Shown here piece by piece: positions 9,160-45,214 of a DNA stretch of 64,000 bases; positions within the stretch are counted from its first letter, which is position 1, and every line of letters begins with the position of its first letter. Origin of the DNA: Escherichia phage SUT_E1620; sequence record OQ939939. The stretch is one strand, 5' to 3'. The notes under the pieces are model-generated. The model worked only from the letters and a program-made list of their open reading frames with translations. It did not search any database and had not been told where the DNA came from. The position numbers were made by a program, and so were the translations under genes.

Positions 9160-9259
9160 TTGATTTAACAACTGTTACGGCAATCCTAATCTTCGGTTTA
9201 GTGGTTGCCGTTTTCATAATCGTTGAGCAGGCCAAAGTAATACGGAGACTTAAAAATAG

Positions 9260-9460
9260 ATGATTAATTTTTATAACCCTAACTTGCAGAAAGCAACGTG
9301 GGATTACTTTATAATTCTACCAGCTTTTATGTTAAGTTGTGCAATCATTAACATTATGTATCAAGAAGCTGGTTGGACAGTCCAAGATTTCCACATTTCA
9401 CAAGTTCTTCCTTTCATGTATGAAGGCGTTATCGCAGCAATAAATGGAGTTCGTAAATGA
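9260..9460 (+). CDS. hypothetical small membrane protein
   Basis: 66 aa; hydrophobic. Confidence 0.3.
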   Translation: MINFYNPNLQKATWDYFIILPAFMLSCAIINIMYQEAGWTVQDFHISQVLPFMYEGVIAAINGVRK

Positions 9461-9924
9461 CAGCACTGCAAAGATTACAGAATTACTGGTTTGATGGCCA
9501 ATTTAATGATTTATTCATCCAGTTGTTTGTCGAAACGAACGGACGTTTTAATTACCGCTTCTTTAATACTTTCCATGAAACGAAGTTCTCGCATACAGAG
9601 ATTAACGCAGCGATTCAAGATCTCACTGGTTCTAAGGTAATTCCTTATCGTGATGTAGATTTTGCACCTGACTGTTTTGGTTTTGAACTGTTTAAGAAAG
9701 CATATAAGTTCGGTAAGTTCGAAGATGCACGACATTGGGTTCATGACTTCTGGTATAATACCGATATCGTCCCTAGCCGTGTACTGATCCTAAACTGGAT
9801 TGCTAAACAACATCCGCCGAAGGCACAATCGGCATTCCTTCCAACTGATACAGGAAATCTTTACCATGACACAAAAGAAAAATCCAGTGCTAGAGCAGAT
9901 GAAGCAGTTGGAGAAGCAGATTGA
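9457..9924 (+). CDS. hypothetical protein
   Basis: 155 aa; ATGA overlap with the upstream ORF. Confidence 0.35.
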   Translation: MTALQRLQNYWFDGQFNDLFIQLFVETNGRFNYRFFNTFHETKFSHTEINAAIQDLTGSKVIPYRDVDFAPDCFGFELFKKAYKFGKFEDARHWVHDFWYNTDIVPSRVLILNWIAKQHPPKAQSAFLPTDTGNLYHDTKEKSSARADEAVGEAD

Positions 9925-10249
9925 GGAAGGAAGCGTTGATGGACAGTCAATTGTCAATCATGCTTTTGATCTTACAGTAGGATGTGCTAATCCGCTGGTG
10001 GCAGGTGAAACAGCAGATATTCTTGGGCTTTTAATGGCAGTTGGCCAGTTAATCGAGATTACCCAAGAAGAGCTAGACAATGATGAAGAAGTAACTGTTC
10101 ATGATGTTCTTGGTGCTCTAGATCTGATTGTTAATGCCTATGCCTATAAACGCCGCCACTCAATTGATGAATATCTAGTTTCTCGTGAGATTACCGAATC
10201 TCTTCTGGAAACTGCTGATATGGCCTTAAACGGCAAGCAACTTCACTAA
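9866..10249 (+). CDS. hypothetical acidic protein (start uncertain)
   Basis: internal ATG at 9866 with AGGAAA SD; overlaps the 3-prime end of the previous ORF. Confidence 0.25.
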   Translation: MTQKKNPVLEQMKQLEKQIEEGSVDGQSIVNHAFDLTVGCANPLVAGETADILGLLMAVGQLIEITQEELDNDEEVTVHDVLGALDLIVNAYAYKRRHSIDEYLVSREITESLLETADMALNGKQLH

Positions 10250-10269
10250 TCCTAGAGGCCAGGACTTAA

Positions 10270-10812
10270 TTGTTCTGCCCTTTCGTGTATACTATGAGAG
10301 ATAAAATAAACGAATTACTTTATGAGGAAGCATTACAATTCCCCATAAATAGATTCACTAAATCAGATGGATCTATTAATAGAACTAAGCTCAAACAACT
10401 TCATCCAGACTTCCAGCAAGATGCACTTAATCTTATCTTTATCAGGAGAGCTGTAGAAGCACATGGTAAGTTCTTTGGATATGAAAGAGTTAAGTATAGA
10501 ACTATGCAACAGCAGGTTGAGATCTATTGCCCAGATCACGATGGTTATTTCTTGCAAACTGCACGGTCTCACTTAGAAGGACATGGTTGCCGATTATGCG
10601 CTCATAAAGTTGTGACACGCTTAACAGAATATGGAGTGTACACCGTACCAGCACCTTTCCACAAATTTGTAGTTGACGGTGAGCATATAATTTGGTATAA
10701 TAAAGATCAAAAGTTAAAACAGGAGTTAAAGAAAGATGGAGTACGTAGTCTGGTCAAACCCATTAGCTTTACTCTCCCACAAACTGTTCAAGACGACGTG
10801 GGGCAGGAATGA
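10270..10812 (+). CDS. hypothetical Cys/His-rich (zinc-binding?) protein
   Basis: CPDHDG...HLEGHGCRLCAH cluster; TTG start, or alternative ATG at 10294. Confidence 0.35.
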   Translation: MFCPFVYTMRDKINELLYEEALQFPINRFTKSDGSINRTKLKQLHPDFQQDALNLIFIRRAVEAHGKFFGYERVKYRTMQQQVEIYCPDHDGYFLQTARSHLEGHGCRLCAHKVVTRLTEYGVYTVPAPFHKFVVDGEHIIWYNKDQKLKQELKKDGVRSLVKPISFTLPQTVQDDVGQE

Positions 10813-11023
10813 GATAACTGTTAATGAGAATCCACTTAATCATCAACATCCTTTAGTCCCAATTCTCTACAAGATTACTATAAATGGTACAGAATACCTA
10901 TTAGATGATTTCGGTAAAGAGTTTGTACAAAAAGCCATAGACGATAATAACGTTTCTATGGGAGAATTAATTAATAGAGCATCTAATTTTGATAAGAGTT
11001 GGATGTTAATTTGGAGTAACTAA
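10736..11023 (+). CDS. hypothetical protein
   Basis: 95 aa; AGGAG SD; overlaps the upstream ORF in another frame. Confidence 0.25.
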   Translation: MEYVVWSNPLALLSHKLFKTTWGRNEITVNENPLNHQHPLVPILYKITINGTEYLLDDFGKEFVQKAIDDNNVSMGELINRASNFDKSWMLIWSN

Positions 11024-12360: not shown

Positions 12361-13082
12361 GTATAAAAAAGAATTTAGCAGAGATTATTAAGTTAGCTAG
12401 AGCTTGTAATGGAAAGAATGTTTCCGAACTTAATGAGTTAGAAGCTCATGCAGTAGCATTTTGTGCAGAGTTTTATCCAGCATATATTAATGCTAGTGGG
12501 CAACCTAAATATAATAAAGATGCAGAAGAAGTCACATTAGCTCCTTCATATATTAGTTTACGTCGTCTGATTCAAACTGTTGATCCTACTATTAAAGGAT
12601 TTTCAGCAGATTCATTCCACGTCTTTGCAGATAAAGAACTCCCGCATTTTAAAGAAGGAAATGCAAAGTCATGTTTAGAATGTTATCCTAATATTCTGAT
12701 GATTCCTCAAAAGCAATGTAAATACGATCATCTCCCTAGACTTACAAAGAAAGTAGAACCACCATATTCTTCTCTATCTGAATTAAAGCTAGGAATCGTA
12801 TCTACACTTGCGCAGGTTCATCTAAGTATAGTTGACGAATCAACATCATCTAACCATATTCTAGATGCTGCTCACTTTGAAATCTTACGTGATCCTGAAC
12901 AAGCTAGAAAAGTTGCAAGATCTGTTAAGTTTGATATCGAAACAATTCTTGACACTAAACAAGAAACTAGACCTAGAGGAAGTGTAGATTATTCTGCGCT
13001 AAATTCCGAGTCATCTTACCTAGCAACATTCCTTTTCATGGCATCGAAGGGAGTCATACTCAAAGTCAATCACGATCTATAA
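12357..13082 (+). CDS. hypothetical protein
   Basis: 241 aa; last gene before the repeat-rich region. Confidence 0.35.
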   Translation: MSIKKNLAEIIKLARACNGKNVSELNELEAHAVAFCAEFYPAYINASGQPKYNKDAEEVTLAPSYISLRRLIQTVDPTIKGFSADSFHVFADKELPHFKEGNAKSCLECYPNILMIPQKQCKYDHLPRLTKKVEPPYSSLSELKLGIVSTLAQVHLSIVDESTSSNHILDAAHFEILRDPEQARKVARSVKFDIETILDTKQETRPRGSVDYSALNSESSYLATFLFMASKGVILKVNHDL

Positions 13083-13099
13083 ACGTTAGCAAAATCTTC

Positions 13100-13128
13100 T
13101 TGACATTATTTGAGCTGCATGTTATAAT
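13100..13128 (+). promoter_or_regulatory. consensus sigma70 promoter reading into the repeat region
   Basis: perfect TTGACA, 17-bp spacer, perfect TATAAT. Confidence 0.5.
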
Positions 13129-13162
13129 AATCTCATAGATTAAAAACATCAACTTGTTTTTA

Positions 13163-13292
13163 CCTCTAGGCCGTAGATTTACATCATTCCTCGTAGGAAA
13201 ATACTTGATGACGGTTCTGCTTGCAGGTTCTCGTCAATTGTTCTTCCTCCCCGAGACTCAGGAGGATGTATCAAATCGCACGCGCCTAGAGG
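13163..13292 (+). ncRNA. candidate structured RNA (cloverleaf-like, about 130 nt)
   Basis: 9-bp closing helix CCTCTAGGC/GCCTAGAGG enclosing three local hairpins, just downstream of the consensus promoter; no convincing ORF. Confidence 0.2.
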
Positions 13293-13486
13293 GGCTAACT
13301 CTCATGAAATGGGGGTATATTAACTTTTATTTACCTTATAATATTTAAAGGCAATATTTGTGTTCAAGATGATACACCGGTTGCCGCTCATCTGCTAGGA
13401 CGGCACAACACTTTCTAGTAGACTCCTAAGTTTCTAGGAAAACTCACGCATTCTAGGGCAGTTTCTCTCCAACGTTACATATCCTA

Positions 13487-13526
13487 GGGCGGTTTCCTAT
13501 ACAGGGCGGTTATAGGGAGGGCGGTT
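13487..13526. repeat. three copies of GGGCGGTT spaced 15-17 bp
   Basis: direct reading; embedded in a CTAG-rich stretch. Confidence 0.5.
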
Positions 13527-13571
13527 ATTTCTAGAAGACATTTTTCCAAAACACATTTCTGGAAATTGCTA

Positions 13572-14172
13572 TCGGATTTGCACATTATGTTTCTAGAAAT
13601 TTATGGTCGGATTTGCACAAGTGCCTAAGTTTTTAGGAACACATAATCTCCTGAAAATAGCAGCATTATTTCGGGCCGAAGGCCCATGATTGCCTGAGTT
13701 TTTAGAGCCACAGGAATTTTCACTTGTCAAGCTATTTTGCCTCATTTTGCTAATAAAATTTCGCTTTATCTCCCTTAATCTCAATTCTAGCCAAAACATC
13801 CCGCATTATCCCCAAAAATGCAGCAAACCGGTGCTAAAGCACCATCACCGCTGCTCCTTCCGTAGTTCCTCCCAAAAACCTCGTCAGATTCGCACTTCTC
13901 CCCAAACTCACACAATCACACACCTTCTCATCGAAGTAACAAAAATCTTGTCGGTTTTGCACACCTTAACACTTGTCGGATTTGCACATACTCTAGTAAA
14001 TCCAGCTGGATTGCATCGCAGTTGCGGATTGCTGGAGTTTTTAGGAAAATTCATTGTCGGATTTGCACACTACCAAAAATTTTGGGGTCGGATTTGCACA
14101 CTACCAAAAATTGTCGGATTCGCACATACACGCCCGCACGTAACACCCGTGGAGCAATGTCGGATTTGCACA
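13572..14172. repeat. iteron array: 8 or more copies of 13-bp TCGGATTTGCACA
   Basis: copies at 13572, 13607, 13951 (TCGGTTTTGCACA), 13976, 14057, 14088, 14114 (TCGGATTCGCACA), 14160; two copies share extended context GTCGGATTTGCACACTACCAAAAATT. Confidence 0.8.
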
Positions 14173-14176
14173 AAAG

Positions 14177-14196
14177 CGCAGGGCAATTGCCCTGCG
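14177..14196. repeat. perfect 20-bp palindrome CGCAGGGCAATTGCCCTGCG
   Basis: self-complementary by direct reading; sits between the iteron array and the tandem repeats. Confidence 0.7.
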
Positions 14197-14201
14197 ACTT
14201 T

Positions 14202-14369
14202 GAATGATAATGTTTCTCATTTAAGAAGTGGAATGCGAATGATAATGTTTCTCATTTAAGAAGTGAAATGAGAACTATTCAAAAAGTGAAATGATTCTCA
14301 TTTAAGAAAGGAAATGATTATCAGTTAGACAGTGGAATGCGAATGATAATGATTCTCATTTAAGAATGG
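14202..14369. repeat. four tandem about 35-bp direct repeats (GAATGATAATGTTTCTCATTTAAGAAGTG family)
   Basis: units at about 14202, 14237, 14288 and 14341; related copies near 14700, 18110 and 23770. Confidence 0.7.
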
Positions 14370-14393
14370 AAGTGAGAAACACTGTTATTTAAG

Positions 14394-14502
14394 TTATCCA
14401 CAGACTTATTAACAGCACGATTTGATTTGACAGAATCCTAGCCATTTTGAGGCGTTATTAACAGACTTATCCACAGCTTATCCTACTGTATAAATATACA
14501 GT
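14394..14502. repeat. left arm of about 110-bp imperfect inverted repeat with two DnaA boxes
   Basis: TTATCCACA at 14394 and 14467; palindrome CTGTATAAATATACAG; reverse complement aligns to 17989-18096 at roughly 80 percent identity. Confidence 0.7.
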
Positions 14503-34226: not shown

Positions 34227-34712
34227 ATGGATCACAGAACAAGTATTGCACAAGCAGTGGTTGACCGAATCGCCACACAAATGGATGGTTCACAACCTGA
34301 CGAGTATTTCAATAACCTTTATGGAAACGTTTCTCGTCAAACTTATAAATTCGAGGAAATCCGAGAATTTCCTTATGTGGCAGTCCATATCGGAACTGAA
34401 ACTGGGCAGTATCTTCCCTCAGGCCAACAGTGGATGTTTTTAGAACTTCCAATCTTCGTGTATGACAAAGAGAAAACAGATATTCAAGAGCAACTTGAAA
34501 AACTCGTAGCTGACATAAAAACCGTCATTGACACAGGTGGAAATTTAGAATATACTGTTAGTAAACCTAATGGATCGACCTTCCCATGTGAGGCAACTGA
34601 TATGAGCATCACCTCAGTAGCTACAGATGAGGGTCTACTGGCCCCATATGGTTTAGCGGAAATAAATGTAACAGTGAGGTATCAGCCACCTCGTAGGGCA
34701 CTTCGCAGATAA
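34227..34712 (+). CDS. tail completion protein (by position)
   Basis: 161 aa. Confidence 0.4.
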   Translation: MDHRTSIAQAVVDRIATQMDGSQPDEYFNNLYGNVSRQTYKFEEIREFPYVAVHIGTETGQYLPSGQQWMFLELPIFVYDKEKTDIQEQLEKLVADIKTVIDTGGNLEYTVSKPNGSTFPCEATDMSITSVATDEGLLAPYGLAEINVTVRYQPPRRALRR

Positions 34713-41698: not shown

Positions 41699-41727
41699 TT
41701 GATAAAATTTTCCAATCCTATTATAAT
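41699..41727 (+). promoter_or_regulatory. sigma70-type promoter
   Basis: TTGATA-17-TATAAT upstream of the gene at 41754. Confidence 0.45.
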
Positions 41728-42368: not shown

Positions 42369-45214
42369 AGAAAATTCTTGACAGTGCAAGAGAGTATCTA
42401 AGAACCAATAATAAAATAAAAACTGCATGCCTTATTACTCTTGAATTGCCAAGCTCTACTGGATCAAGTTCTGCGTACATTTATCTTACAGACTATTTTA
42501 GGGATGTAATTTATAATGGTATTCTTTACACATCCGGTAAAGTTAAGTCTATAACAACACATAAACAAAATAGAAAACTTTCCATCGGTAGCCTTTCTTT
42601 TACTATAACAGGTACTGCTGAGGATGAAGTATTAAAACTAGTCCAAAATGGTGTATCCTTCCTAGATAGATCCATCTCAATCCATCAAGCGGTTATTGAT
42701 GAAGAAGGTAACATTCTTCCTGTAGATCCAGACACTAATGGTCCTTTACTTTACTTCCGTGGTAAAATCACTGGTGGTGGTATTAAGGACAACATTGGTA
42801 CTTCTGGAGTTAGTACATCTATTATTACATGGAACTGTTCAAACCAATTCTATGACTTTGATAGAGTAAACGGACGTTTCACAGATGATGCTGACCATAG
42901 GGGGCTTGAGATTGTTGCTGGCCAATTAGTTCCCTCTAATGGTGCTAAGCGACCTGAATATCAAGAAGACTACGGGTTCTTCCACGCTAACAAGAGTATC
43001 TCTATTCTTGCTAAGTATCAGGTTCAGGAAGAACGTTATAAGTTACAATCTAAGAAAAAATTATTTGGTCTTTCTAGAAGCTATAGTCTAAAGAAATATT
43101 ATGAGACTGTAACTAAGGAAGTAGATCTTGATTTTAACTTAGCTGCTAAATTCCTGCCAGTAGTATATGGAGTTCAGAAAATTCCTGGAATCCCAGTATT
43201 TGCAGATACTGAACTGCATAATCCTAATATTGTATATGTAGTATACGCTTTCTGTGAGGGTGAGATTGATGGATTTCTAGATTTCTACTTTGGTGATGTA
43301 CCAATGATCTGTATTGATCCTAATGATAGTAAGTCTCGTACTTGCTTTGGTACTAAGAAAGTAGCTGGTGATACCATGCAACGTATTGCTTCTGGTCAAC
43401 CAAGCTCTGAACCTTCTGTTCATGGACAGGAATATAAGTATAATGATGGTAATGGCGATATCCGTATCTGGACTTATCATGGTAAGGCTGATCAATCTGC
43501 CGCTGATGTTCTAGTTAACATTGCAAAAGAGAAAGGTTTCTATCTACAGAACATGAATGAGAATGGACCGGAATACTGGGACTCTCGTTATAAACTGTTA
43601 GATACTGCTTATGCTATTGTTCGCTTTACTATTAATGAAAACAGAACAGAAATTCCAGAAGTTAGCGCTGAAGTTCAAGGTAAGAAGATTAAGATCTATC
43701 ATTCAGATGGTAGAGTAACTGCTGATAAGACTAGCTTAAATGGTATATGGCAAACTCTGGACTACCTAACCTCTGATCGCTACGGTGCTAATATCACTAT
43801 CGATCAGTTCCCACTCCAGCAACTTATTCAAGAAGCAGCTATTTTGGATATCATTGATGAATCCTATCAGGTTTCTTGGCAACCCTATTGGAGATACGTT
43901 GGATGGACTGATGCTGTAGGAGAGAATAGACAAATAGTTCAAATGAACACTATTCTCGATACCTCTGAGTCAGTATTTAAAAACGTGCAGGGATTAATAG
44001 AGTCTTATGGTGGTGCTATCAACAACTTATCTGGTCAATATAGAATAACTGTTGAGAAGTTCTCAAACACCCCATTAGAGATTGACTTCTTAGATACCTA
44101 TGGTGATCTGGAATTGTCAGATACTACTGGTAGAAATAAATTCAACTCAGTACAAGCCTCTATACTAGATCCTGCATTAAGCTGGAAAACTAACTCCATT
44201 ACATTCTTTAACTCTATATTTAAGGAACAAGATAAAGGGTTAGATAAAAAACTTCAACTTTCTTTTGCAAATATCACTAACTACTATACTGCGCGTAGCT
44301 TTGCAGATAGAGAACTGAAAAAGTCTCGTTACTCACGAACTCTTACGTTCTCGTTACCATATCATTTCATAGGTATTGAGCCTAACGATCCGATTGCTTT
44401 TACATATGGTCGTTATGGTTGGGATAAGAAATACTTCCTAGTTGATGAAGTTGAAAACTCTAGAGAAGGTAAGATTAATATTACACTGCAAGAGTATGGT
44501 GAGGATGTATTCATTAACTCCGAGCAGGTTGATAATAGTGGTAACGATATCCCTGATGTTAGTAATAACGTACTGCCTCCTAGAGACTTTATGTACACAC
44601 CAACACCGGGTGGACAAGTAGGATCTATTGGTAAGAATGGTGAGTTATCTTGGCTTCCTAGCTTAACTAATAACGTTGTTTATTACTCCATCGTTCATTC
44701 AGGGCATGCTGATCCTTATATCATACAGCAACTAGAAACTAATCCAAATCTACGAATGATCCAAGAAATTATTGGAGAACCTGCTGGTTTAGCAGTCTTT
44801 GAGATTAGAGCTGTAGATATTAATGGTAGACGAAGTTCTCCTGTAACATTATCGGTAGAACTTAACTCTGCTAAAAACTTAAGCGTCGTTAGTAATTTCA
44901 GGGTTACTAACACAGCTTCAGGAGATGCATCGGAGTTTGTAGGACCAGACGTTAAGTTGGCCTGGGATAGAATTCCAGAAGAAGATATCATTGATGGAAT
45001 CTTCTACACTCTCGAAATCTACGATAACCTAGATCGTTTATTAAGAAGTGTACGAATTGAAGATCAGTATGTCTACGATTATCTACTGATATACAATAAG
45101 GCAGACTATGCTCTTCATAACGAGGATGCTCTAGGTATTAATAGGAAGTTACGCTTCCGTATAAGAGCAGAAGGTGATAATGGCGAGCAATCTGTGGATT
45201 GGGCATCTATTTAA
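42365..45214 (+). CDS. baseplate hub / tail tip protein (pb3-like)
   Basis: 949 aa, the size I recall for T5 pb3; position. Confidence 0.55.
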   Translation: MKKILDSAREYLRTNNKIKTACLITLELPSSTGSSSAYIYLTDYFRDVIYNGILYTSGKVKSITTHKQNRKLSIGSLSFTITGTAEDEVLKLVQNGVSFLDRSISIHQAVIDEEGNILPVDPDTNGPLLYFRGKITGGGIKDNIGTSGVSTSIITWNCSNQFYDFDRVNGRFTDDADHRGLEIVAGQLVPSNGAKRPEYQEDYGFFHANKSISILAKYQVQEERYKLQSKKKLFGLSRSYSLKKYYETVTKEVDLDFNLAAKFLPVVYGVQKIPGIPVFADTELHNPNIVYVVYAFCEGEIDGFLDFYFGDVPMICIDPNDSKSRTCFGTKKVAGDTMQRIASGQPSSEPSVHGQEYKYNDGNGDIRIWTYHGKADQSAADVLVNIAKEKGFYLQNMNENGPEYWDSRYKLLDTAYAIVRFTINENRTEIPEVSAEVQGKKIKIYHSDGRVTADKTSLNGIWQTLDYLTSDRYGANITIDQFPLQQLIQEAAILDIIDESYQVSWQPYWRYVGWTDAVGENRQIVQMNTILDTSESVFKNVQGLIESYGGAINNLSGQYRITVEKFSNTPLEIDFLDTYGDLELSDTTGRNKFNSVQASILDPALSWKTNSITFFNSIFKEQDKGLDKKLQLSFANITNYYTARSFADRELKKSRYSRTLTFSLPYHFIGIEPNDPIAFTYGRYGWDKKYFLVDEVENSREGKINITLQEYGEDVFINSEQVDNSGNDIPDVSNNVLPPRDFMYTPTPGGQVGSIGKNGELSWLPSLTNNVVYYSIVHSGHADPYIIQQLETNPNLRMIQEIIGEPAGLAVFEIRAVDINGRRSSPVTLSVELNSAKNLSVVSNFRVTNTASGDASEFVGPDVKLAWDRIPEEDIIDGIFYTLEIYDNLDRLLRSVRIEDQYVYDYLLIYNKADYALHNEDALGINRKLRFRIRAEGDNGEQSVDWASI

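Follow-up and report, generated by a model that had tools for sequence, protein, structure and literature searches.

The 64,000-nucleotide stretch of Escherichia phage SUT_E1620 analyzed here (record OQ939939; the whole stretch is termed the window) carries, at positions 13100-13335, a consensus promoter followed by a segment with the features of a gene for a structured non-coding RNA. Comparison with annotated relatives and with T5 identifies the window as DNA of a T5-like phage (Demerecviridae), its + strand running opposite to the standard T5 map. Phage records matching positions 12900-13700 number 439, the top ones being Salmonella and Escherichia Demerecviridae (95-98%), and 463 records match positions 13083-13420. 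The genes between 9800 and 13082 are tightly packed and all lie on the + strand; the group that closes at 13082 comprises the leftmost early genes and is homologous to T5.022-T5.018. A long "untranslated" region follows, leading to the injection stop signal (iss) and the left terminal repeat.

The DNA of T5 enters the cell left end first, and its transfer pauses near the 7.9% nick (10.1101/866236). A T5 stretch of 1662 bp (9194-10856 in AY587007 numbering) has been treated as non-coding and rich in repeats and palindromes (Heusterspreute 1987; Davison, bioRxiv 10.1101/866236), and the RNA gene candidate falls within this "untranslated" or iss stretch. The repeat map of AY587007 ends at 10409 and ORF018 starts at 10856; the interval between them, left blank in that record, holds the RNA gene candidate together with a conserved block described below. 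The annotated right ends of the terminal repeats of T5, EscoHU1 and Stitch correspond to approximately position 13700 of the window, which places the candidate outside the terminal repeat by ~ 600 bp (promoter) to ~ 370 bp (3' end), with the promoter aimed at the repeat. The 7.9% nick of T5 corresponds to ~ 14176, beside a perfect palindrome at 14171-14202 that is the counterpart of T5 palindrome J, so that the candidate lies ~ 0.85-1.1 kb past the nick.

The original prediction for this segment, made from the letters of the window, had placed a perfect-consensus sigma-70 promoter (TTGACA-17-TATAAT) at 13100-13128. A consensus scan agrees: the site scores 12/12 with a 17-nt spacer and a TG before the -10, and it is the only 12/12 match within the 64-kb window, where sites with at most one mismatch number six against 0.99 expected. 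In order to follow this promoter across phages, we pooled the homologous regions from annotated phage records, IMG/VR, and metagenomes, which gave 43 distinct sequences. The exact 30-nt promoter string had no match in IMG/VR, and a shorter string covering the -10 and the initial transcript retrieved homologues where the longer one failed; a search with the protein of the upstream gene returned 7 loci only. Among the 43 homologues, the -10 is TATAAT in 42 (T5 itself has TATCAT), the TG of the extended -10 is present in all, and the -35 is TTGACA in 32, the remainder having TTGACG, TTGCAT, or TTGCAA. The spacer is 17 or 18 nt long and occurs as 19 different sequences, and the 15 nt on the 3' side of the -10 (AATCTCATAGATTAA) are identical in 37 of the 43. 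This conservation spans Salmonella and E. coli phages, T5, and Klebsiella Sugarlandvirus phages, and the promoter is kept where the upstream gene encodes a different protein or is a homing-endonuclease gene. Fixed contact positions and freely varying remaining positions are what is expected of a functional promoter, and by its sequence this is a real, near-maximal sigma-70 promoter. A AAACGTTARCAAAAT-type sequence is also kept 5' of the -35 in most of the sequence types introduced below, including those in which the upstream gene differs; by resemblance, we infer that this A-rich stretch could serve as an UP element.

Some other promoter-like sequences were encountered. The window contains two further near-consensus promoters (11/12) at 34528-34556 and 41699-41727, whose sequences appear to match the classical T5 promoters PJ5 and PD/E20; the location of the second would be at odds with the position of P-D/E20 in NC_005859 (pre-early region). 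A 20-nt similarity at 44241 was rejected as a promoter. The exact 23-nt string of -10 and initial transcript TGTTATAATAATCTCATAGATTA is also present in a human-gut metagenome contig (L049, 2877-2899), where it is followed by unrelated A/T-rich sequence and a pilin-like open reading frame (ORF); we rejected this contig as a copy of the RNA gene and consider the match an unrelated promoter or a chance occurrence.

Downstream of the promoter, the predicted RNA folds into three successive hairpins, termed H1, H2, and H3 from 5' to 3' (Table 1). For the RNA of 13135-13300, the minimum-energy structure has -57.4 kcal/mol (z = -5.3), a stability reached by none of 200 shuffled sequences, and it coincides with the centroid structure. 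The 9-bp long-range helix of the original prediction is confirmed, its two strands, 13163-13171 (CCTCTAGGC) and 13284-13292 (GCCTAGAGG), being perfectly reverse-complementary. The helix was thought to enclose three local hairpins; this model was rejected, its best version having -38.8 kcal/mol, ~ 12 kcal/mol worse than the -50.6 kcal/mol of the single long bulged hairpin that is the minimum-energy fold of 13163-13292 and that all other types likewise form. H2 is 66-78% paired with many bulges, and in types A, B, and D the 3' arm has a pyrimidine-rich CUUCC/CCUCC bulge (13244-13252) resembling an anti-Shine-Dalgarno sequence. The total of about 130 nt first proposed also proved too short; it missed H1, H3, and the U-rich tract behind H3, with which the predicted RNA reaches ~ 185-200 nt.

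Table 1 Predicted features of the RNA gene candidate and its promoter in the window.
Feature	Position	Strand	Basis or remark
A-rich UP-element-like stretch	13078-13099	+	Abuts the -35; includes the stop codon (13080-13082) with which the last early gene ends
-35 hexamer TTGACA	13100-13105	+	Consensus scan
Extended -10: TG (13120-13121) and TATAAT (13123-13128)	13120-13128	+	Consensus scan
Predicted transcription start (A, 7 nt past the -10)	13135	+	Sigma-70 geometry
Whole predicted small RNA (~ 185-200 nt)	13135-13335	+	Covariance model from other types, 56.7 bits, E ~ 7e-12
H1, 8-bp 5' hairpin	13141-13162	+	RNA folds; covariation
H2, 130-nt long bulged hairpin with the 9-bp helix at its base	13163-13292	+	-50.6 kcal/mol, z = -5.5
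H3, 8-bp terminator-like hairpin ACUCUCAU-GAA-AUGGGGGU with U.G pairs	13298-13316	+	Folds, conservation
U-rich tract after H3 (AUAUUAACUUUUAUUUACC), probable 3' end zone	13317-13335	+	7 U in the first 12 nt

A covariance-model scan against Rfam, which the original prediction had suggested, matched no known family: Rfam 15 models, among them those of 6S, pRNA, c4, and known phage and enterobacterial small RNAs, gave no match in the window at their gathering thresholds, and at E ≤ 10 on 13090-13480 only two chance-level matches were obtained, to IS009 (18 bits, with 117 needed) and SNORA18 (17 bits, with 70 needed). A scan for tRNA and tmRNA found none, and a search of E. coli genomes, made to see whether the predicted RNA mimics one of the host, found nothing similar to it.

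The transcribed segment exists in at least ten sequence types: A (the window, faergetype, HildyBeyeler, and others), A2 (EscoHU1), B (Sds2, OSYSP, DT571/2), C (VAH1), D (Th1, KPP2018), E (S114, HdH2), F (Stitch, SpoonbillGilly, PK7), G (Klebsiella P5010), H (T5), and a tenth, Sugarlandvirus type (FZ41). When each type was folded singly, all formed the long hairpin and the 3' hairpin, and all except FZ41 formed the small 5' hairpin. The z-score of the whole RNA ranges from -2.3 to -8.4 across the homologues (-5.7 for FZ41), and that of H2 alone from -3.2 to -7.7 in nine types. The lower half of H2 keeps its sequence, with CUCUAGG..GAUUAU in the 5' arm and AAUC..CACGCGCC in the 3' arm. The tops of H2 share ~ 40-50% identity between most types, the level expected for unrelated sequences, and in six of nine types they are nevertheless significantly folded on their own (z from -2.2 to -4.9).

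With MAFFT and RNAalifold across types, the hairpin tops could not be aligned and covariation was seen in H1 only, where three of seven pairs are changed on both sides among types B-E (AU to CG, CG to UA, and AU to UA). We then built a covariance model of 33 pairs from types B, C, and D only. Although lacking the window's own type, this model retrieves 13135-13335 on the + strand end to end, without a second significant match in the window, as well as types A2, E, and F. With default filters and E ≤ 1 it did not recover T5 and Klebsiella type G, whose membership is based on synteny, the common promoter and 5' end, and their own folds. In an alignment of 31 sequences made with the model, 94.0% of the cells at paired positions can pair, compared to 84.6 ± 0.6% in shuffles (0 of 500 shuffles reached the observed value), and the comparative check for compensatory changes that had been proposed for the stems reveals double-sided changes in 11 pairs (70 cells). 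A covariation score of 0.208 was obtained, compared to 0.082 in the control, and sliding the 3' partners by 1-3 columns leaves 36-50% paired and 0-4 covarying pairs. The lower H2 stem is conserved in this alignment and includes covarying pairs. Within type A, 12 near-identical sequences differ at six positions, four of them in loops or unpaired; of the others, the 13202/13240 pair is kept (U.G in the window, C-G elsewhere), and a change at 13248 breaks a U-A pair at a helix end in 8 of the 12.

The core of the original prediction, a consensus promoter driving a structured non-coding RNA, thus stands, with promoter hexamers and spacing kept and the fold kept in ten types with compensatory changes. 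A fold beyond that of shuffles, compensatory changes, and the lack of a conserved frame are the generic marks of a structured non-coding RNA, and all three are found here, the second in an alignment fitted to the model.

The strand on which the structure is best formed was examined as well. With H3 included, the + strand folds better than the - strand in eight of nine types. The U.G pairs of H3 are kept in 20-30 of the 31 sequences, and over the whole alignment G.U cells outnumber A.C cells (77 versus 17). As DNA, H3 has essentially no stability, and on the - strand it has none. The single-stranded DNA fold of H2 is ill-defined, with a minimum-energy frequency of ~ 0.001 and a centroid that lacks the middle. 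What argues for a reading as RNA is the promoter together with H3 and the orderly succession H1-H2-H3 that they delimit.

Regarding the 3' end, H3 of the window consists of an 8-bp stem with 3 G-C and 2 U.G pairs followed by AUAUUAACUUUU, whereas in type E the stem has 14 bp and UUUUUCUUU comes after it, a site listed as a terminator in the HdH2 record. Apart from H3, no terminator-like site was found on the + strand between 11000 and 16000, which makes H3 the sole candidate terminator of both the RNA and the upstream early operon.

Taken together, we consider it probable that a small, extensively structured non-coding RNA has its own independent gene in this segment. Host RNA polymerase would start near 13135 and transcription would stop, at least in part, at H3 (~ 13320-13335), giving a stable RNA of ~ 190 nt that would itself be the product. 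Because it is located beyond the 7.9% nick, the gene should be outside the cell during the first-step pause; by its geometry, it would then be the first complete transcription unit to enter once second-step transfer resumes. Sequence is fixed at the 5' end, in the lower part of H2 with the pyrimidine-rich bulge, and in H3, the top of H2 being variable and merely helical. This pattern, along with the lack of extended complementarity in the window, suggests that the RNA might be bound by a host or phage protein, as a scaffold or a decoy, rather than act by long antisense pairing. The functional options first listed for the segment fare unequally: only that of a small RNA gains direct support, that of a processing signal gains none, and that of transcription activating the downstream iteron region is weakened, given a terminator-like hairpin in front of the repeats.

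Several observations weigh against an independent RNA gene. The start, the end, and the abundance of the RNA are all inferred, and protein binding, drawn only from the conservation pattern, is the weakest step. A textbook terminator is present only in type E; in the window the U-tract is interrupted and weaker than a canonical tail, the consensus scan did not call H3, and H3 is weak in Klebsiella type G. With such a hairpin, partial read-through into the A/T-rich tract, the conserved block, and the repeat array is possible. Three of the nine H2 tops (A2, C, and G) are not significantly folded alone. The pairing percentage of the 31-sequence alignment is inflated by the fitting to the model structure, although the contrast with the controls is still large, and the lower H2 stem is largely invariant and hence uninformative for covariation. 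Finally, H2 alone shows a mild strand asymmetry as RNA (the + strand is better in six of nine types) and none as DNA (-21.3 kcal/mol on each strand, z ~ -3.3), and this near symmetry means that H2 could have been selected as a DNA palindrome.

This last point leads to an alternative in which no diffusible RNA is involved and transcription through the imperfect 130-bp palindrome and a 45-bp A/T-rich stretch acts on the neighboring DNA, by DNA opening, R-loop priming, activation of the GTCGGATTTGCACA array, or assistance in duplicating or cutting the terminal repeat at the concatemer junction ~ 370-600 bp downstream. In T7, the phiOR promoter and a hairpin-forming inverted repeat lie a few hundred bp from the terminal repeat and take part in concatemer processing. 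In the window, the promoter faces the repeat array and the terminal-repeat boundary (~ 13700), the H2 arms are free to vary while complementary, the sequence directly downstream consists of the A/T-rich tract (13317-13361) and then a highly conserved block (13362-13445), and H3 is a weak terminator in several types; the strand symmetry of H2 described above fits as well. However, a bulged H2 with its incomplete pairing is poorly suited to cruciform extrusion, whereas the true palindromes of the region are perfect (14171-14202), and the ill-defined single-stranded DNA fold contrasts with an RNA for which minimum-energy and centroid structures coincide. Such a device would also give no role to H1 and to the strand-specific H3, and in most types it would have a terminator-like hairpin between the promoter and the repeats. 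We regard it as rather unlikely.

A more specific proposal, which we judge unlikely and offer as speculation, is that the segment is a dedicated part of T5 DNA biology and not an ordinary regulatory small RNA (sRNA): the RNA could complete or protect second-step transfer, or transcription through the imperfect palindrome could trigger priming, duplication, or cutting of the terminal repeat ~ 370-600 bp downstream.

The segment could instead be the 3'-end module of the upstream early operon, with H3 as its terminator, H2 as a stabilizing or processing hairpin (e.g. for RNase III, whose typical substrates are long bulged hairpins), and the promoter as an add-on yielding a by-product RNA. The tightly packed + strand genes up to 13082, the lack of another terminator-like site on this strand, and the terminator annotated at H3 in HdH2 are consistent with this. 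Nevertheless, a by-product would not call for a promoter whose conservation, together with that of the 15 nt following the -10, exceeds that of the genes around it. The unit also survives both replacement of the upstream gene and insertion of a homing endonuclease gene ahead of it, and H1, which is downstream of the promoter, covaries. We find this explanation quite improbable.

Equally little credence is given to a base-pairing regulator, either a seed-type sRNA assisted by Hfq or ProQ or a cis-antisense RNA (CopA/RNA-OUT type) to a - strand transcript. The conserved 5' end, the structured body, and the 3' hairpin with U-rich tail do reproduce the layout of enterobacterial sRNAs, and the anti-Shine-Dalgarno-like bulge of types A, B, and D could serve in pairing. 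Yet complementarity within the 64-kb window does not exceed 12 nt, the best matches having E values of 0.6 or worse, the conserved 5' end is predicted to be paired inside the RNA in most types, and an interrupted U-tail is poor for Hfq. For the antisense variant, the only promoter-like site on the - strand (TTGAAC-18-TATTAT, 13367-13338) scores 9/12 in A/T-rich DNA and, as read from the alignment, is not kept in T5 and type F.

That the region encodes a small protein is very improbable, and this coding reading is largely refuted. As the original prediction had noted, there is no convincing ORF: the frame ending at 13348 (64 aa from a TTG at 13154, 47 aa from an ATG at 13208) exists in type A only, shrinking to 35 aa in a close variant. 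Local ORFs belong to no Pfam or PHROG family, and no + strand ORF is shared between types. Conservation of CATGAAATGGGGG creates a potential mini-ORF start (MKWG...) at 13305, but this mini-ORF is not kept across types, as its ATG is missing in F and G, a stop follows at codon 2 in C, and its length varies between 8 and 18 aa. A conserved small protein, the finding that would have spoken against an RNA gene, was thus not found between types, and a Shine-Dalgarno-like GAGGGG is buried in the base helix of H2. A coding sequence (CDS) is annotated here in faergetype (~ 13208-13399) and Seafire (~ 13205-13348); other GenBank records annotate nothing or conflicting ORFs, the CDS being placed on one strand, on the opposite strand, or not at all.

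The RNA gene candidate may be compared with several known systems. Like enterobacterial and phage sRNAs that have their own sigma-70 promoter and terminator, including those of the 3'-UTR (3' untranslated region) type, it combines a promoter with a short structured transcript, a 3' hairpin, and a U-rich tail, and it is conserved in sequence in some parts and in structure elsewhere. The 3'-UTR-type sRNAs share the terminator of the upstream operon, and the candidate likewise directly follows the last gene of an operon. Compared to seed-type sRNAs, it is longer than most and far more structured (~ 70% paired), and has no Rfam family; its source is a strictly virulent phage, not a prophage. The packaging RNA (pRNA) of the phi29 family is ~ 120-174 nt long, is made from a strong early promoter near the genome end, and keeps its structure while its sequence diverges. 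The candidate is also a phage RNA with a strong promoter near a genome end and a structure kept despite sequence divergence; in contrast to pRNA, it gives no match to the pRNA model, and its promoter is aimed at the terminal repeat rather than located at the extreme end. T5 packages its DNA with a terminase, and we know of no report that an RNA is required. The length of ~ 185 nt, the dominance of one long irregular helix, and a potentially very high abundance recall 6S RNA, but the 5' and 3' ends of the candidate are not paired with each other (H1 and H3 are free), H2 has small internal loops and no large conserved central bubble, and 6S models gave no match even at E ≤ 10.

Modules combining a promoter with a DNA or RNA structure are also known, e.g. 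phiOR and the concatemer junction of T7, ori(uvsY) of T4 with its promoter and unwinding element, and RNA II of ColE1. The candidate shares with them a strong promoter that faces A/T-rich DNA, direct repeats, and, a few hundred bp away, the boundary of a terminal repeat, with an inverted repeat between. It differs in having a terminator-like hairpin before the A/T-rich tract, and neither a replication origin nor a packaging site is known to have been mapped to this region. With regard to an iteron-type origin activated by transcription, the region has about ten copies of GTCGGATTTGCACA at irregular spacing (25-344 bp) and an A/T-rich tract; no initiator gene was identified by Pfam or PHROG among the neighboring proteins. 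As far as Davison (10.1101/866236) relates the papers cited there, the origins of T5 are placed elsewhere.

Three GenBank records of T5 have no feature at the position of the RNA gene. The Davison preprint (10.1101/866236) calls the 1662 bp non-coding and does not use the word "promoter", and no mention of the RNA gene is made in papers on BF23, RNA-polymerase-binding proteins of T5, its pre-early genes, or the transcriptomics of Bas33 (HildyBeyeler). The searchable literature, whose coverage does not extend to the older, subscription-based electron-microscopy papers that mapped T5 promoters, has no promoter or RNA at this position. The segment thus appears to be a previously unannotated and undescribed RNA gene candidate in a classical model phage family, while phage small RNAs as a general kind are already known.

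T5 is a classical model phage, and the mechanisms of its two-step injection, of its switch from pre-early to early genes, and of terminal-repeat formation are unsettled. The 1.6 kb beside the injection stop signal have been regarded since 1987 as untranslated, purely cis-acting DNA, so that a conserved and probably very highly expressed RNA gene would be a new candidate player where these processes meet. Hundreds of sequenced T5-like phages carry the candidate, among them some considered for therapy against Salmonella, E. coli, and Klebsiella. Annotation is concerned as well, since several GenBank records carry mutually inconsistent "hypothetical protein" CDSs on this segment.

Other features of the region were recorded. 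A CDS directly precedes the promoter in Sds2, OSYSP, DT571/2, and VAH1 (loci L008-L011, from 842/844 to 1198/1200) and in Klebsiella FZ41 (L059, 491-880). It is labeled "putative homing endonuclease" in DT571/2, "T5orf172 domain protein" in VAH1, and "endonuclease" in FZ41, the same-sized CDSs of Sds2 and OSYSP being labeled "hypothetical protein" only. This CDS stops where the similarity to the intergenic sequence of the window starts, which suggests that the conserved edge of the putative RNA gene is an insertion or homing boundary.

On the other side, 13362-13445 is the most conserved non-coding block of the region. T5 has it too, and its identity stays at 95-98% even in phages whose RNA body is not alignable. 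Within it lie an imperfect hairpin (GTTGCCG...CGGCACAAC), the first CCTAAGTTTCTAGG repeat, and a - strand mini-ORF (MSGNRCIILN..., ATG at 13391) with a variable C-terminus and no Shine-Dalgarno sequence; the conservation of the block looks to be at the nucleotide level rather than coding. The GTCGGATTTGCACA copies, known as "direct repeat D" in T5, occupy 13563-14171 and straddle the terminal-repeat boundary, and each contains ATTTGCACA, an 8/9 match to the relaxed DnaA-box consensus TTWTNCACA. A 189-aa ORF with a TTG start (13690-14259, + strand) runs across this array and is annotated as a CDS in Seafire and KPP2018. It belongs to no Pfam or PHROG family and is probably not a gene; 97 stop codons have been reported in the equivalent region of T5. 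The end predicted by PhageTerm for Seafire (L002, 4277) corresponds to ~ 14176, at the equivalent of palindrome J, rather than to the ~ 13700 of the T5, EscoHU1, and Stitch ends, and a natural nick may have been mistaken for a terminus in that record. Beyond palindrome J, 14200-14392 contains an array of GAATGATAATGTTTCTCATTTAAGAAGTGGAATGC-type direct and inverted repeats, which extends up to a pair of DnaA boxes (GTTATCCACAGACTTATTAACAGC and GTTATTAACAGACTTATCCACAGC, 61 bp apart) at 14393-14477 that corresponds to the IRD'-spacer-IRC' element described by Davison as belonging to the injection stop signal.

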